A stretch of DNA of 64,000 nucleotides from Vicinamibacterales bacterium (GCA_965247955.1 OZ252042.1:1584323-1648322); one strand, 5' to 3'; shown: positions 2,628 through 55,775, counted from the first letter of the stretch. The notes: a model not told the origin generated them from the letters alone. Program-made: numbers and translations.

Positions 2628-3305
2628 TTACGACGAAGAAGTATCCTTCAGTTTGCCGACGGCGACCGAGGCGGCGCGCAGGACTTCTTCACCGACCGTG
2701 TAACCAGGCTTGATCACCTCGATCACGATGCCGTCCTGTGATGCGTCGGTTACCGGGACCGTTGAAAAGGCGTCGTGTTGGTTTGGGTCGAAGGGCTGAC
2801 CGGCTGGCTCGACACATCTTACCCCGTGCCGGCCGAGCGTGGCGAGGAATTGGCCCCGCACGATCTCCAATCCTTTGAGTAATGCCTCGTCACTGGCACC
2901 GGGCCTTGCGGTATCCGCGGCGGAGCCAAGTGCCCGATCCAGGTTGTCCATAACTTCTAGAAAGCTCGCGAGGACGGCGCGCTTTTCCCGTTCCACATCC
3001 TTCGCTAACTCGCGGCGAAGTCGCACTCGGGCTTGCTCGAACTCTGCCGCCTGGTCCTTGTACTGGGCAGCGTAGCGTTTGATGACCTCATCTTTCTCCG
3101 CGATTTGATATTCGAGGTCCTCGATGTAGGATGGCTTCGAGCTACTACTTTCACTACCGTCAGCCTCTTCGTTTCGCGCCCACCACCGCTTGTCGACGAC
3201 GCGAACGTCCGCTTCGCTTTCTAGAGGAGAGGTCTCGTTGTGGACGTGGGAATCAGAATCAGCATCAGGAGTTTCAGGGAAGGTTGGCACCTCCGGTTTA
3301 TTCAC
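2628..3305 (-). CDS. grpE: nucleotide exchange factor GrpE
   Basis: GrpE C-terminal signatures are present (FLEVMDNLDRAL, FDPNQHDAFSTVP, GYTVGEEVLRAASV). The start is uncertain: GTG 3305 overlaps the clpA stop, and the ORF track extends to 3356. Confidence 0.85.
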   Translation of the reverse strand: MNKPEVPTFPETPDADSDSHVHNETSPLESEADVRVVDKRWWARNEEADGSESSSSKPSYIEDLEYQIAEKDEVIKRYAAQYKDQAAEFEQARVRLRRELAKDVEREKRAVLASFLEVMDNLDRALGSAADTARPGASDEALLKGLEIVRGQFLATLGRHGVRCVEPAGQPFDPNQHDAFSTVPVTDASQDGIVIEVIKPGYTVGEEVLRAASVAVGKLKDTSSS

Positions 3306-5649
3306 TGGTGGCCTCCTCGACCGTCGGCCGGGCGACGTCAGAATCGGGCATGTCACCCGAGGGAGTTGGTTGGAAGTCGAACGCCAGCGCGTTGTCCTTT
3401 AGCCAAATTCTGACGGTGCCGCCTTGTTCCAGCTGTCCGAACAAGATCTCGTCGGTGAGTGTGTCGCGGACCTCGGCCTGGACAACACGAGCCAGGGGCC
3501 GTGCCCCATAGACTGCGTCATGTCCCTTGGCCGCAAGCCATTTGCACGCCTCCGGTTCAAGCAGGATAGCGACGCGTCGCTCGGCTAGCTGCGCCTCGAG
3601 TTGCAAGATGAATTTCTCGACGATTGTTTCCACAACTTCGGGTGTTAGGGTTCTGAACGACACTATTGCATCGAGCCGGTTGCGGAACTCCGGGCTGAAG
3701 ATCCGCTCGATCGCCGACTTTACGCGGCCCTTAGCCGAACTCAACGGGTCGTCGCCAAAGCCGATGGCGGAAGCGCTCGCCTCGCGCGATCCGGCGTTTG
3801 ACGTCATGATGAGAACGACATGCCGGAAGTCCGCCTTGCGACCGCTGTTGTCGGTCAGCGTTGCATGGTCCATCACCTGTAACAGGATGTTGTAGACGTC
3901 CTGGTGGGCCTTCTCGATTTCATCGAGCAGCACGACACTGTAGGGGTGCGTGCGAACGGCATCGACGAGTAACCCGCCCTGCTCGAAACCGACATACCCC
4001 GGCGGTGCGCCGATCAGCCGCGCCACGGCATGCTTCTCCATGTATTCGCTCATGTCGTATCGAATAAATTCGTTGCCAAGATGGATAGCCAATTGCTTGG
4101 CGAGCTCTGTTTTCCCGACTCCGCTCGGACCCGTAAAAAGGAAACACCCGGACGGTCGGTCTGGCAGTCCAAGGCCGGCACGAGCACGCTTGATCGCTGC
4201 TACCACCTCACGGACCGCATCCTCCTGCCCGAAAACGACTCGCTGCAGTGCCTCCTCGAGTGTTCGGAGCCGTTCCTTGTCGGACGCAGTGGTTTGTTTC
4301 TCGGGGATACGCGCCATGCGGGCGACGATCCGCTCGATCTCAGCCCCGGTTACTTTCGGAGACTCTGGCTCGCCTGACTGCTCGCGCCCCGCTTCTTGCC
4401 GCTGCAGCGCGAGTACCGCCCCAGCCTCGTCTACGACGTCAATGGCACTGTCCGGAAGCCTGGCATCACGCAGATGACGACTAGCCAGCTTCGCTGCGGC
4501 GCTAAGGGCGTCGTCGGTGTACGTAACCATGTGGTGAGCCTCGTAGCGCGACCGGAGACCCTTGAGGATTTGTGCTGTTTCGTCGATAGTCGGTTCGTTG
4601 ATGACGATTTTCTGTAGGCGGCGCGCGAGCGCGCGGTCCTTTTCGATGTGTTTGAACTCGTCGAAGGTAGTCGACCCGATCACTCGGAGCTCACCTGCCG
4701 CAAGAACCGGCTTGATAAGAGTCGCTAGATCCATCGTTCCGCCGGTAGTGGCCCCCGCACCGACCGCAGCGTGGACTTCATCGATGAATAAAATCGGCAT
4801 CTGATGATCCGAGAGCGCCGTAGTTACGGCCTTGAACCGTTCTTCGAAGTCCCCACGGAACCGAGTGCCGGCCAGTAAGGCCGTGGTATCAAGCGCAAAA
4901 ACCTGCGCACCGCTGAGCCGTGAGGGGACGTCGTCGTCGAGAAGGCGTTTAGCCAGCCCCTCGGCCAACGCGGTCTTGCCGACCCCGGCGTCGCCAACGA
5001 ACACAGGGTTGTTCTTGCGGCGACGGCAGAGAATCTCCAGTGTGCGCTGCAACTCGGCGGTCCGGCCGATAAGCGGATCTAGTTTGCCAGCCCGCGCGCG
5101 CTCCGACAGGTTTACGGTATAGGCCGCGAGCGGGTCGCGTGCCGTCGCTGGGCCCTCCTCGCCCACCCCGGCCTCGGCGGTGTCAGTCTTCGACTCGTTG
5201 TCACCGGTAATGAGTGGGACCTTGGAGATCCCATGTGAGATGAAGTTGAGGACGTCGAGCCTGGTGATCCCTTGTGCTTCGAGGACCTGAGCAGCATACG
5301 TCTTGGGCTGCTGCAGGATCGCAGCGAGCACGTCACCCGAACGGACCTCGTCCTTTCCTGCGCTTTGGACATGTAGAACGGCCGTCTGGAGAACACGCCG
5401 AAACCCGAGCGTCTGGGCAGGCTCGCGCGCGCGTTCGCCCTTGCCGAATGTTTCCAGCGTGCTGAGAAACTCATCGAGCGTCCGTCTTAGTGCGGGCAAG
5501 TCAGCTCCACAGGCAGCAAGGATGCGTTCCCCTTCCGGGTCGTGCGCGAGAGCGTAGAGCAAGTGTTCCAAGGCGAGATAGGTGTGTTTTCTTGAAGCCG
5601 CTTCGCGATACGCGACGTTGAGAATCAGCTCGAGTGAGGCGCTGAACAT
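3298..5649 (-). CDS. clpA: ATP-dependent Clp protease ATP-binding subunit ClpA
   Basis: It has the Clp N-domain (MFSASLELILNVAYREAASRKH), two AAA+ modules (GDAGVGKTA and GPSGVGKTE Walker A) and no ClpB middle domain. The start is at ATG 5649. Confidence 0.93.
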   Translation of the reverse strand: MFSASLELILNVAYREAASRKHTYLALEHLLYALAHDPEGERILAACGADLPALRRTLDEFLSTLETFGKGERAREPAQTLGFRRVLQTAVLHVQSAGKDEVRSGDVLAAILQQPKTYAAQVLEAQGITRLDVLNFISHGISKVPLITGDNESKTDTAEAGVGEEGPATARDPLAAYTVNLSERARAGKLDPLIGRTAELQRTLEILCRRRKNNPVFVGDAGVGKTALAEGLAKRLLDDDVPSRLSGAQVFALDTTALLAGTRFRGDFEERFKAVTTALSDHQMPILFIDEVHAAVGAGATTGGTMDLATLIKPVLAAGELRVIGSTTFDEFKHIEKDRALARRLQKIVINEPTIDETAQILKGLRSRYEAHHMVTYTDDALSAAAKLASRHLRDARLPDSAIDVVDEAGAVLALQRQEAGREQSGEPESPKVTGAEIERIVARMARIPEKQTTASDKERLRTLEEALQRVVFGQEDAVREVVAAIKRARAGLGLPDRPSGCFLFTGPSGVGKTELAKQLAIHLGNEFIRYDMSEYMEKHAVARLIGAPPGYVGFEQGGLLVDAVRTHPYSVVLLDEIEKAHQDVYNILLQVMDHATLTDNSGRKADFRHVVLIMTSNAGSREASASAIGFGDDPLSSAKGRVKSAIERIFSPEFRNRLDAIVSFRTLTPEVVETIVEKFILQLEAQLAERRVAILLEPEACKWLAAKGHDAVYGARPLARVVQAEVRDTLTDEILFGQLEQGGTVRIWLKDNALAFDFQPTPSGDMPDSDVARPTVEEATSE

Positions 5650-41568: not shown

Positions 41569-41576
41569 GCAGTTTT
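41569..41576. repeat. target-site duplication, left copy (GCAGTTTT)
   Basis: It is identical to 44552-44559 and directly abuts the left terminal inverted repeat. Confidence 0.8.
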
Positions 41577-41593
41577 GGTAGTGTCTCAGTTTG
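41577..41593. repeat. left terminal inverted repeat GGTAGTGTCTCAGTTTG
   Basis: Its reverse complement is at 44535-44551 (16/17). The transposase stop codon (41586-41588) lies inside it. Confidence 0.85.
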
Positions 41594-42446
41594 CCTGAGC
41601 CACAGGCTGAGGCGGTTCGACCTCTTCCAGTAGTCGGACCACATCTTCCATGTCCAACACCCGATCCGTCAGGCCAGCGGCCTGAGCCGGCGTCGTCCGC
41701 AACGTCTTGTGGATCTTCGTGAAATTGTAGAACACCGTGTAGAGCGCCACCATGTGGACGTGGTTGATAAGTTTCTTGGAGAATCCATTCGTCAGGCGCG
41801 TGAACCGTCGCATGTGCATCCGCATTGTGAGGTTCTGGCGCTCCACGCAGGACGTGGAGATGTGCTTCGCGTCCGGGTCACCTGCGATTCTCTTCGAGAG
41901 GCACCTGATGCACTTGGCCGGGCTGTAGCGAGTTTCATTCTCGTCCGATGCGCCGTAGAGCTTCACAAGCTGTGCGAAGTCCACGTCAGAGCCGAACACG
42001 TCCTCGACCGCCTCGACGTAGAGCATCAGTCCGTCTGACGTGAGCTGGACGCGGTTCGCAAGACGCACCTTTAGGTCACTGACGAAGGTGAACGCCGAAC
42101 CAGCGTCACGCGGCCCAACGAGCCACGAGACGATCAGCTTCGAGTCCGCATCGAGGCCGGTCCACGTCCACGTATCGCCGGCTCCGACAGGTGCCTTCTT
42201 CGCGGTCGGAACGTTTTTGTCCTTCGCGTAGGTGAAGCTCCAAATCTCATCGAGTTGCACCCGCCGAGCCTTCACGCCGCGCACCTGATCATCGTGGAAG
42301 GCTGCACAGAGCCGCCCAGCGTCCACCAGGAGCTTCGAGACGGTGTTGATCGACACGTCGGCCAGCCGGGACACCGCCCGCATCGAGGTTCCCTCGCAGA
42401 GCAGCGAGAGGATCTGAGCGCGTTTGGCGACAGGCAACTTATTCAT
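41586..42446 (-). CDS. IS1-family transposase (single-ORF type)
   Basis: 286 aa with the N-terminal HTH KRAQILSLLCEGTSMRAVSRLADVSINTVSKLL, the DEIWSF motif and a DDE-type core. Confidence 0.75.
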   Translation of the reverse strand: MNKLPVAKRAQILSLLCEGTSMRAVSRLADVSINTVSKLLVDAGRLCAAFHDDQVRGVKARRVQLDEIWSFTYAKDKNVPTAKKAPVGAGDTWTWTGLDADSKLIVSWLVGPRDAGSAFTFVSDLKVRLANRVQLTSDGLMLYVEAVEDVFGSDVDFAQLVKLYGASDENETRYSPAKCIRCLSKRIAGDPDAKHISTSCVERQNLTMRMHMRRFTRLTNGFSKKLINHVHMVALYTVFYNFTKIHKTLRTTPAQAAGLTDRVLDMEDVVRLLEEVEPPQPVAQAN

Positions 42447-42558
42447 GCCCCATTATATGAACTTTATTGCTTAGCGTCAAGTATTAAAGTTCTGTATTGT
42501 CAGAAAGTTTCTTGCTTAACGGTCAGAAAGTATATTGCTATGCGGCGCGAGGTGGTCA

Positions 42559-43713
42559 ATGAACTTTAGAACGCCAGTGCTTACCGAGACTGAGCTTAAG
42601 GTGCATCTATCCATTGATGAACTTAGGGTAAAACTCAGCTATGCGGTTCCATCGCGCCGCTGGCTCGGTCTCTTGAGTCGCGTCCTGAGAGCAAGAGCCA
42701 TCCAGGGTTCCAACAGCATCGAGGGCTACAACGTGACGATGGAAGATGCGCTTGGCGCTGTGGACGGCGAAGAACCGTTGGATGCGTCCAGCGAAACCTG
42801 GATGGCCGTAACCGGCTACCGGGACGCAATGACCTACGTGCTGCAATTGGCCGATGATAAGCATTTCGGGTATTCCACCGATTTGCTCCGAAGTCTTCAC
42901 TACACCATGACGAAGCACGACCTCAGCAAACATCCAGGTCGGTGGCGACCCGGAACCATCTTCGTCCAGAACGAAGCGACGCAGCAGCGAGTCTACGAAG
43001 TCCCCGACATTGACATCGTGCCGGCGCTCATGGGTGAACTCGTGGCCGAATTAAATTCACAGGAATCGCCACTCGCTATGGTGACAGCAGCGATGGCGCA
43101 CCTAAACCTGGTCATGATTCATCCGTTCTCGGATGGAAATGGCCGAATGGCGCGCTGTTTACAGAGTCTCGTGCTGGCCCGTGACGGAACCCTGGCCCCG
43201 CAATTTTCAAGCATCGAAGAATATCTTGGCAGAAACACCCCCGCGTACTACGACGTGTTAGCGAGTGTCGGCCACGGCAACTGGAATCCAGAACGGGACG
43301 CGACCGACTGGATTCGATTCTGCCTCACAGCCCACTTCAGGCAGGCTGTTACTCTCTTGCGTCGTGTGAAAGAACTGGGTCGAATGTGGGATGCGTTGGA
43401 GGAAGTTGTTGCCCAGCGAAGGCTTCCCGAACGGGCTGTCTTTGCGCTAGCTGACGCGGCGCAAGGATTCCGTGTGACAAATTCGCGGTATCGCAGCGTT
43501 GTAGAAGTCTCACAGAACCTTGCCAGTCGCGATCTGTCCCATTTTGCTAAAGCCGGACTGCTTGAGCCGCACGGTGAACGACGTGGTCGATATTACATAG
43601 CATCTGCCTACACGACAGCGATCCGACAGAAGACGAGAGAACTGCGCACGCCGATTCCAGATCCGTTCACCGAGAACCAACTAGACTCACAGGTGGCGCT
43701 TTTTGCCGGGTGA
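42559..43713 (+). CDS. Fic-family protein (AMPylase-type) with N-terminal inhibitory motif and C-terminal winged-helix
   Basis: It has the catalytic HPFSDGNGRMAR and an S-x-x-x-E-G inhibitory motif in GSNSIEGYN. I placed the start at ATG 42559 after GGTGG. Confidence 0.9.
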   Translation: MNFRTPVLTETELKVHLSIDELRVKLSYAVPSRRWLGLLSRVLRARAIQGSNSIEGYNVTMEDALGAVDGEEPLDASSETWMAVTGYRDAMTYVLQLADDKHFGYSTDLLRSLHYTMTKHDLSKHPGRWRPGTIFVQNEATQQRVYEVPDIDIVPALMGELVAELNSQESPLAMVTAAMAHLNLVMIHPFSDGNGRMARCLQSLVLARDGTLAPQFSSIEEYLGRNTPAYYDVLASVGHGNWNPERDATDWIRFCLTAHFRQAVTLLRRVKELGRMWDALEEVVAQRRLPERAVFALADAAQGFRVTNSRYRSVVEVSQNLASRDLSHFAKAGLLEPHGERRGRYYIASAYTTAIRQKTRELRTPIPDPFTENQLDSQVALFAG

Positions 43714-43941
43714 TCGATGCCATCGCGTCTTGGCCGCCATCTTGGCGATCTGCTCACGCTTCGATGCAGACAGGGTTTTCGCTCGTGCGAGGCCACCCTT
43801 GCGGCCCAGTTCGACGGCGGCCTTGTTCTTCCCGTCCTCAGTCAGCAACTCTTCGATCTCGCCCGTGGCGATCTTCATCACCGTGACGGCATTCGAGATA
43901 ACATCGGCGGGGCGTTTTTGACCTTTCGGACCTTTTGGCAT
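43687..43941 (-). CDS. small basic protein (KGG..ARA..AAKTRW-type C-terminus), function unknown
   Basis: 84 aa with the MPKGPKGQKRPADVISNAV start. Its 3' end overlaps the fic 3' end by 27 nt. Confidence 0.5.
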   Translation of the reverse strand: MPKGPKGQKRPADVISNAVTVMKIATGEIEELLTEDGKNKAAVELGRKGGLARAKTLSASKREQIAKMAAKTRWHRSPGKKRHL

Positions 43942-43984
43942 ATGCTTTGCGCTAAGTATAACACGTTTGCATGGAGGTGTTTCA

Positions 43985-44155
43985 ATGGCAATAGACCCAG
44001 CGTTTCACTCTGCCTTGGTATCAGATCGGAACGTCTACCACGATAGCAGTCTCTGCACGGAAGGGAACAACATCGAAGCGAAGAACCGGCGGAGTGGCAC
44101 TGGTGGACGTCCGCGCTGCGAACGGTGTATTGACAGGGAAAAGCAGGCTAAGTAA
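43985..44155 (+). CDS. small Cys-containing protein (YH..C.EGNNI..GTGGRPRCERC), function unknown
   Basis: 56 aa from ATG 43985. The ORF track opens at 43967. Confidence 0.4.
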   Translation: MAIDPAFHSALVSDRNVYHDSSLCTEGNNIEAKNRRSGTGGRPRCERCIDREKQAK

Positions 44156-44513
44156 TACGTCCGTTAAACTCGACTTCACGCTGGAGCCGTTTCAGCGGCC
44201 GTTCCCAAAACGTCAATTCCCACTGAGGCCCGACTGGTTCGCCGTCTTGCACGCTCCACACCCGGCGAAGGTCTTTGACCGGAAGGCCGAAGGACTGCGC
44301 GATCCCAAGCGCCCGGAAGCCCTCGCACTGCTTGCCGTGGAAGCGGACAGCCGGTTCTCGATACGAATGCCCTGGGCCACCCTGACATGCTTCGTACGTC
44401 TCAATCCCGCTGTCTCGAAGTACCTTGACGGCATAGCTGATCCACCGATCGAGCGGACTCTCAGCATCTAACTCTCGGCAATATACAAGCCGTTTCTCAA
44501 GACTCAGAACCAC
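44148..44513 (-). CDS. hypothetical protein, 121 aa
   Basis: It has a GTG start. I recognised no family. It is the last passenger ORF before the right terminal repeat. Confidence 0.45.
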   Translation of the reverse strand: MVLSLEKRLVYCRELDAESPLDRWISYAVKVLRDSGIETYEACQGGPGHSYREPAVRFHGKQCEGFRALGIAQSFGLPVKDLRRVWSVQDGEPVGPQWELTFWERPLKRLQREVEFNGRIT

Positions 44514-44534
44514 GGCATGAGGCCCTTACCTGTC

Positions 44535-44551
44535 AAACTAAGACACTACCG
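44535..44551. repeat. right terminal inverted repeat CAAACTAAGACACTACC
   Basis: It is the reverse complement of 41577-41593 with one mismatch. Confidence 0.85.
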
Positions 44552-44559
44552 CAGTTTTT
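44552..44559. repeat. target-site duplication, right copy (GCAGTTTT)
   Basis: It is identical to 41569-41576. Confidence 0.8.

Positions 44560-54173: not shown

Positions 54174-55775
<1,602 letters not shown>

Follow-up and report, generated by a model that had tools for sequence, protein, structure and literature searches.

A probable cargo-carrying transposon of a divergent, single-ORF IS1 branch in a Vicinamibacterales genome

We analysed a stretch of 64,000 nucleotides from a Vicinamibacterales bacterium (GCA_965247955.1, OZ252042.1:1584323-1648322; hereafter the 64-kb window) and describe here an insertion sequence (IS)-like element within it, together with the relatives of this element in other genomes. 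The element extends from 41577 to 44550, is 2,974 bp long, and lies in the spacer between two divergently transcribed host genes that encode a 253-aa outer-membrane-like protein and a carboxylesterase. It is bounded by a pair of terminal inverted repeats and holds a single transposase gene at its left end, with the stop codon inside the left repeat (TCA on the plus strand, 41586-41588). Between the transposase gene and the right repeat are a gene for a Fic-domain protein and three small open reading frames (ORFs), here called o84, o62 and o121. A first-pass annotation of this DNA had recorded the same gene content and the same position of the stop codon, and had read the block as an IS1-family element of 2,975 bp with intact ends and four passenger genes; the family and the ends are borne out, the length is 1 bp less, and the count of passengers changes, as described below. 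The element matches its surroundings in base composition (G+C content of 56.7% against 56.9% for the window), which ruled out a composition anomaly, and the window contains no tRNA genes and no Rfam families above threshold.

Table 1. Features of the element and its borders, in window coordinates
Feature	Position	Strand	Evidence or remark
Target-site duplication, left copy, GCAGTTTT	41569-41576	.	Identical octamer beside both repeats; single copy in the empty site
Proximal terminal inverted repeat (IRR, ISfinder orientation)	41577-41593	.	Begins GGTAGTG; holds the transposase stop codon
Single-ORF IS1-family DDE transposase, 286 aa, N-terminal helix-turn-helix (HTH)	41586-42446	-	Pfam PF03400, NCBIfam transpos_IS1, BLASTP to InsA/InsB
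Transposase promoter, TTGACG-17-TATAAT	42452-42480	-	11/12 consensus matches; conserved in relatives
Palindrome ATACTT-GACGCT-AAGCAA, candidate operator	42467-42484	.	Overlaps the -35; clade consensus ATGCTT-N6-AAGCAT
Direct repeat GTCAGAAAGTTTCTTGCT / GTCAGAAAGTATATTGCT, cargo-specific, upstream of fic	42499-42539	.	Outside the conserved backbone; absent from L059
Fic-domain protein, SoFic-like, 384 aa, cargo	42559-43713	+	Pfam Fic 3.2e-13; PADLOC SoFic 4.3e-49; PDB SoFic chains ~5e-11
o84, 84-aa basic (isoelectric point 10.7) helical protein, clade backbone gene	43687-43941	-	tblastn, family size, codon-position bias, AlphaFold2 (AF2) model
Second palindrome copy, ATACTT-AGCGCA-AAGCAT on the minus strand	43942-43959	.	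Directly upstream of the o84 ATG; overlaps a -10-like TATACT
o62, small Cys-containing ORF, 56-62 aa (56 from ATG; opens at TTG 43967), variable cargo	43985-44155	+	Paired with o121
o121, 121-aa alpha/beta protein, variable cargo between distal repeat and o84	44148-44513	-	AF2 model; homologs
Distal terminal inverted repeat (IRL, ISfinder orientation), CAAACTAAGACACTACC	44534-44550	.	Sequence comparison with the proximal repeat
Target-site duplication, right copy, GCAGTTTT	44551-44558	.	Identical octamer; empty site

The left 17-bp repeat, GGTAGTGTCTCAGTTTG, is matched at the right end by its reverse complement at 16 of 17 positions, and the octamer GCAGTTTT abuts both repeats on the outside. 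These repeats and the perfect 8-bp duplication had been noticed in the first pass and are real; the left-hand positions stood, whereas those on the right (44535-44551 for the repeat and 44552-44559 for the octamer) had been placed 1 nt too high. Allowing up to three mismatches, a search with the 17-mer returned just the two repeats from the 64-kb window (chance expectation 0.17) and no internal terminus near the transposase start, in agreement with the earlier annotation. The octamer occurs once more in the window, at 55412. Both ends start with GGTAGTG, which fits the GGnnnTG of IS1-family ends, and the 8-bp duplication lies within the 8-9 bp that are usual for target duplications of this family.

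An empty site in close relatives shows how the block arrived. A homolog of the flanking 253-aa protein (P0241, 96% identity) sits on two independent metagenome contigs of a closely related strain, L085 (ENA) and L086 (JGI), where the gap between its gene and that of the carboxylesterase measures 438 nt. The left and right flanks of the window element align contiguously to both contigs at 96-97% identity, and the junction reads CCACTAGAAAGCAGCTTTTCATCAGTGG, with a single octamer copy, GCAGCTTT, that carries one single-nucleotide polymorphism (SNP) relative to the predicted site. Compared with the window, the empty site removes exactly 41577-44558. Thus the uninterrupted site that the first-pass annotation had proposed to look for exists in this strain, one SNP off, indicating that the whole block transposed as a unit, as that annotation had supposed, and that the insertion, in which the octamer of the window lineage was duplicated, took place later than the split of these strains. 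Scanning the JGI metagenomes for the exact pattern of the predicted site gave no match because the real site carries the SNP in its octamer. A flank homolog on a further contig (L087, 83% identity) was dropped as empty-site evidence since the esterase side is not syntenic, and exact-sequence look-ups of the window transposase and esterase found nothing on record.

The block could also be read as an IS1-like element of ~0.9 kb that merely lies beside unrelated genes, with the far repeat and octamer being a solo end or a chance match. Both the size of classical IS1 (~0.77 kb) and the presence of only one transposase gene would suit such an arrangement. However, no internal terminus lies beside the transposase start, dozens of relatives have the same long architecture with perfect 8-bp duplications, and the exact extent of the empty site already refutes this alternative, to which we assign next to no probability.

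The transposase passes the Pfam model PF03400 (DDE_Tnp_IS1) marginally, at 24.6 bits against a gathering cutoff of 24.1, and matches NCBIfam transpos_IS1 with E=5.5e-15 but at 55.8 bits, under the model cutoff of 100. In BLASTP against E. coli IS1A, the E-region of InsB matched at 36% over 39 aa and the InsA HTH also aligned; this HTH and a DEIWSF motif, found at residues 66-71, had both been noted in the first-pass annotation, and both are present. D66 of this motif, D138 (TSDG) and E202 (ERQN) are invariant in 82 relatives and likely constitute the catalytic triad. The transposase has more than 8,000 homologs, many of which are labelled 'IS1 family transposase' by their source annotation, and the ends of IS1A from E. 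coli K-12 read GGTAATG and GGTGATG, compared with GGTAGTG in the window element.

Classical IS1 elements are compact and passenger-free (0.7-1.2 kb), join insA and insB' by a programmed -1 frameshift, and encode a zinc finger in InsA. The window element instead measures 2,974 bp with four non-transposase ORFs, and its transposase is one uninterrupted 286-aa ORF that lacks a Cys-rich N-terminus and aligns with InsA only in the HTH part. It is therefore not a classical IS1, yet is compatible with single-ORF subgroups of the family. ISfinder lists such subgroups, among them 'ISMhu11' with lengths of 900-4,600 bp, so that a cargo-carrying IS1 relative would not be new in kind. We conclude from these comparisons that the transposase and its element appear to represent a divergent, single-ORF branch of the IS1 family. 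The same traits might mark a separate IS or transposon family with a distant resemblance to IS1: the single ORF has neither frameshift nor InsA-type zinc finger, similarity to InsA and InsB is confined to the HTH and E-region, the NCBIfam score falls far under its cutoff, and the clade has an extra conserved gene and obligate cargo. Weighed against ends that fit GGnnnTG, a duplication within the IS1 range, a Pfam score above gathering and public annotation that consistently reads 'IS1 family transposase', we consider a separate family improbable.

In order to place the element among its relatives, we surveyed species-representative genomes, taking 80 loci with transposases at 60-88% identity to that of the window, and delimited elements by their repeats. 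This first survey yielded 36 related elements, to which six were added afterwards. Perfect 8-bp duplications flank 31 of the 36, each with a different target sequence, and element lengths range from 2.0 to 4.3 kb; their median, ~2.95 kb, matches the window element. The terminus consensus reads GGTAGTG.CTCAGTTTGAAAT in the 36-element survey and GGTAGTG.CTCAGTTTG(AAAT) in the delimited relatives. The six later elements share this structure and include plasmid-borne ones in the cultured isolates Acidiphilium multivorum and Mesorhizobium loti. The window element, whose insertion is recent, is a typical representative of this clade.

Members of the clade carry cargo as a rule: across the roughly 90 relatives that we sampled, a stretch of 1-3.5 kb normally separates the distal repeat from the transposase gene, and no intact cargo-free member was seen. 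The two shortest copies, L081 (955 bp) and L091 (1,563 bp), have 5'-truncated transposase genes. We rejected L081 as an ancestral plain IS, since it has lost the transposase promoter together with roughly 29 codons at the start of the gene, which makes it a deletion derivative; the shorter copies examined all read as internal-deletion derivatives. The first-pass description of the window element as an unusual cargo-carrying IS is thus reversed by its own relatives.

Pairwise comparison of elements with close transposases revealed two stretches of homologous DNA, one comprising the distal repeat and the 5' region of o84 and the other running from ~35-48 nt upstream of the transposase ATG through the proximal repeat, while the DNA between the two stretches is unrelated. 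Cargo is common to only six of 18 pairs with transposases at least 90% identical, and the same cargo families are found with transposases just 53-60% identical, indicating that cargo is decoupled from transposase phylogeny. There is a second, smaller slot between the distal repeat and o84, which in the window is occupied by o121 and o62.

The block thus combines one IS-type transposase, one repeat pair, passengers inside and a duplication around the whole unit, which is the make-up of a 'transporter IS' (tIS). Taken together, we regard it as very probable that 41577-44550 is one intact cargo-carrying transposon of this kind, belonging to a divergent single-ORF branch of IS1, with the layout of its clade and exchangeable cargo.

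The 84-aa ORF had been counted as one of four passenger genes; the comparison with relatives places it in the backbone and leaves only fic and the o121/o62 pair as variable cargo. In at least 68 of 83 loci, tblastn placed an o84 homolog upstream of the transposase gene and in the same orientation; for most of the others the upstream sequence is too short for a decision. The copy in L071 is diverged and that in L059 is a truncated remnant, and four of four contexts sampled starting from o84 lie inside repeat-bounded elements. About 7,000 o84 homologs were found, with no Pfam family among them and one copy annotated 'histone H1'. In close pairs, codon positions 1, 2 and 3 of o84 differ at 0.20, 0.18 and 0.49, and this ~2.5-fold excess at the third position indicates that the protein is under purifying selection. 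The AF2 model consists of three helices (mean predicted local distance difference test, pLDDT, 70.6). We found no match to o84 in Pfam, NCBIfam or PADLOC, no PDB sequence match and no significant Foldseek match; against PHROG there was only a weak match, to phrog_2384 of unknown function, and the BLASTP comparison with InsA gave E=8, which is no sign of homology.

P63C-domain and RhuM cargo proteins of other elements have the C-terminal motif of o84 (residues ~46-76), GG.ARA..L...R..IA..AA..RW, at their N-termini. Cargo ORFs with this motif occur in L019, L024, L027, L029, L058 and L073, and it is also present in the phage family phrog_2384; to judge from this distribution, the motif behaves as an independent small mobile module.

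Upstream of the transposase gene, conservation among relatives is confined to a ~45-nt promoter block. Its -10 ends 5 nt before the ATG, no Shine-Dalgarno sequence is present, and a spacing of 5-7 nt is kept in relatives, from which a leaderless transposase mRNA is predicted. Half-sites of the palindrome over the -35, GCTT-N6/7-AAGC with at most one mismatch, occur in 49 of 81 transposase promoters against a background of 2%. The palindrome upstream of o84 is found at the same stringency in 16 of 68 o84 upstream regions, against a background of 4%, and is recurrent in the subclade of the window element. Both copies in the window share one half-site deviation, ACTT for GCTT. We infer that the palindromes at the transposase promoter and upstream of o84 may form a common operator, with o84 as the most economical candidate binder because the transposase must recognise quite different terminal repeats. 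A promoter-like TTGACC-17-TATGCT (43918-43946, plus strand) faces o62, has 9 of 12 consensus matches and may be due to chance; its -10 falls inside the palindrome next to o84, so that o84 and o62 could be divergently transcribed under one operator.

The spacer between the transposase gene and fic also contains the 10-bp direct repeat GTCAGAAAGT, at 42499 and 42522, which extends to 18 nt at 16 of 18 positions (42499-42516 and 42522-42539). The first-pass annotation had reported this repeat 1 nt off and suggested a regulatory role. The repeat itself stands, but as part of the cargo-specific DNA upstream of fic: it falls beyond the conserved promoter of the transposase gene, and the corresponding spacer of L059, the other Fic-carrying element, lacks it. 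It is possibly a promoter or operator of fic.

The Fic-domain protein of the window resembles the anti-phage protein SoFic. The PADLOC SoFic match covers residues 37-355 of 384, the active-site motif HPFSDGNGRMAR is intact (aa 188-199, nt 43120-43155), and an N-terminal inhibitory motif, SNSIEG, is encoded at nt 42709-42726. A Fic fold, the HxFx(D/E)GNGRxxR motif and similarity to the full-length model are thus all found, as expected of a SoFic-type protein, and the score against NCBIfam SoFic is 55.7 bits, for a cutoff of 550. The sole homologous Fic cargo among the fetched loci is that of L059, at 55% identity. There, the Fic gene extends with its 3' end into o84 and takes the place of the C-terminal half of o84 (L059:2600-2854 and 2810-3982), and in the window the 3' ends of fic and o84 overlap convergently by 27 nt, so that Fic cargo seems to encroach on o84.

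The other cargo of the window is the o121/o62 pair, which recurs among the fetched elements only in L062 (4000-4513). The o62 homolog of that locus (L062:4000-4164, 46% identity) is likewise the only one found among the loci, while the family of o121 comprises 947 cluster representatives at E<=1e-3. Searches of Pfam and PDB with o121 gave no match, and Foldseek gave none of significance despite an AF2 pLDDT of 91.4. In the window (43985-44513) the pair adjoins the distal repeat; in L062 it is found at the other end of the element, past the transposase stop and directly inside the proximal repeat. In both cases o121 reads inward from the adjacent repeat.

Defence and toxin families recur in the cargo of relatives. 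They include PD-Lambda-2_B-like HTH-M78 proteins with partners such as the HigB toxin (11 ORFs), the Rosmer proteins RmrA (8-10 ORFs) and RmrT (4), and RhuM/PDC-S05 (2). Other cargo consists of an nSTAND NTPase, an AAA_21/AAA_15 ATPase, a methylase-HNH fusion, a ParA-like ATPase, P63C-domain proteins and SDH-type proteases, besides several small ORFs of unknown function. Judged by these model matches, it is well supported that defence or toxin cargo is a tendency of the clade, not a rule.

These comparisons show that the whole 2,974-bp unit was inserted with a duplication of 8 bp of target, by a DDE transposase predicted to recognise the 17-bp GGTAGTG ends. The layout of the clade runs from the distal repeat through an optional slot, o84, a variable cargo slot, and the promoter with the predicted leaderless transposase gene to the proximal repeat with the stop codon. 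Cargo is swapped between such backbones independently of transposase descent, most likely via homologous recombination in the conserved o84 and transposase flanks, and compact anti-phage defence or toxin cargo would reward the host for keeping the element. o84 may serve as the DNA-binding regulator of the element, acting at the palindrome that the transposase promoter shares with the DNA upstream of o84; by analogy it would be a functional counterpart of IS1 InsA and not a homolog. More tentatively, the clade as a whole may be an undescribed, dedicated shuttle for compact defence and toxin modules, equipped with the o84 regulator, a leaderless transposase gene and a recombining cassette slot, a possibility that we rate as serious though somewhat short of probable.

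Several observations weigh against these interpretations. The IS1 signal of the transposase is weak, with Pfam barely passed, NCBIfam at 55.8 against 100 and an InsB match of only 39 residues. There is a single element copy in the window and hence no sign of current activity in this genome. Known defence models account for only about a third of the cargo sets, and many sets consist of P63C-domain proteins, SDH-type proteases or small ORFs of unknown function. The palindrome upstream of o84 occurs in only about a quarter of loci, o84 has no fold or family match and an AF2 model of moderate confidence, and L059 retains just the N-terminal part of o84, yet a perfect duplication flanks its element, indicating that o84 may be dispensable in cis.

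These last points bear on whether o84 is a regulator at all. It might be a very common hitch-hiking passenger, such as a small nucleoid-associated or anti-defence protein, with the palindrome bound by the transposase or a host factor. The perfect duplication around L059 with its o84 remnant is in line with this, as are the recurrence of the C-terminal motif in P63C-domain cargo N-termini and phrog_2384, which marks it as a mobile module, and the lack of an assignable DNA-binding fold. On the other hand, the position and strand of o84 are fixed while its surroundings vary, every complete element examined has it or at least a remnant of it, its sequence is under purifying selection, and its upstream region shares the palindrome with the transposase promoter. 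We therefore find the passenger role rather unlikely and favour o84 as the putative regulator.

Further observations were made on individual loci. An apparent 4.8-kb element, L021:3111-7888, consists of two related elements in tandem whose internal proximal and distal repeats are 8 bp apart. Other insertion sequences, with a Mutator-family transposase and a DDE_3 transposase, are nested in the cargo slots of two elements, L010 (5570-6856) and L040 (3930-5492). In L092 (402-4149) the element neighbours a SMODS/CBASS-like gene, QueC and a PIN protein, and a RES-Xre pair lies directly outside the repeat of L083 (5383-6221). These defence and toxin neighbours of several elements suggest insertion in or near defence islands.

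We searched the literature on ISMhu11, on IS1 with passenger or cargo genes, and on IS1 with defence systems, and found no description of this architecture, ISfinder itself not having been queried; nor did the literature searched describe a conserved accessory gene, a defined exchangeable slot for defence cargo, or the shared palindrome. The clade of such elements is large and apparently undescribed, and it matters more than the window element, which is itself ordinary. In it, members of the smallest class of DNA transposons are built as a standard backbone with an exchangeable cargo slot, much as Tn7-like elements and integrons are. The 1-3.5 kb between two easily recognised conserved genes provide a 'guilt-by-embedding' handle: with ~7,000 o84 and more than 8,000 transposase homologs in public data, small defence and toxin systems could be mined from uncultured soil and aquatic bacteria. 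o84 and its candidate operator offer a testable case of transposase control without the IS1 frameshift. The clade has thousands of copies in Acidobacteriota, Alphaproteobacteria and other phyla from soil, freshwater and marine habitats; if it is indeed a shuttle, P63C-domain, SDH-protease-like, DUF6941 and DUF7689 proteins as well as o121/o62 would be strong candidates for new systems against phages or mobile elements.

Among known systems, IS1 of E. coli shares several features with the window element: the repeats of IS1A begin with GGnnnTG, its DDE transposase has DE.W and ER.NL...R...FSK motifs and an InsA-like HTH, and its target duplication falls in the 8-9 bp range. In concept, o84 parallels InsA, a small regulatory protein to which it has no similarity. 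IS1 differs in being cargo-free and 768 bp long, with two ORFs joined by a -1 frameshift and a zinc finger in InsA, whereas the window element has one 286-aa ORF lacking this zinc finger and a 2.1-kb non-transposase segment. The single-ORF IS1 subgroups (including ISMhu11) share with it a single-ORF transposase and lengths well above 1 kb that imply passenger DNA. The Fic protein of the window is a near full-length match to the SoFic model of PADLOC and has a similar size and both motifs of the Shewanella oneidensis protein (structures 3EQX and 3ZCN); it is distant in sequence (PDB ~5e-11; NCBIfam 55.7 bits against 550), and its defence role is predicted.

IS derivatives with passenger genes inside their terminal repeats are a recognised category, the tIS, whose passengers are described as being lost only through events independent of transposition (PMC9330008). 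As described there, tIS have the same make-up as the window element, with one IS-type transposase, one repeat pair and one duplication around the passengers (PMC9330008). The window clade differs in that cargo is the rule for a clade of thousands and that the backbone has a dedicated second gene. Tn7-like transposons and integron cassettes are reported to carry defence systems (Benler et al. 2021, PMC8649781), and, as in the window clade, the mobility backbone is conserved while the cargo varies widely and is enriched in genes for defence and toxin-antitoxin systems (PMC8649781). In contrast to Tn7-like elements, members of the window clade have no sequence-specific attachment site and enter diverse targets, and they do so as units of only 2-4.3 kb with a single DDE transposase and usually one module per element.

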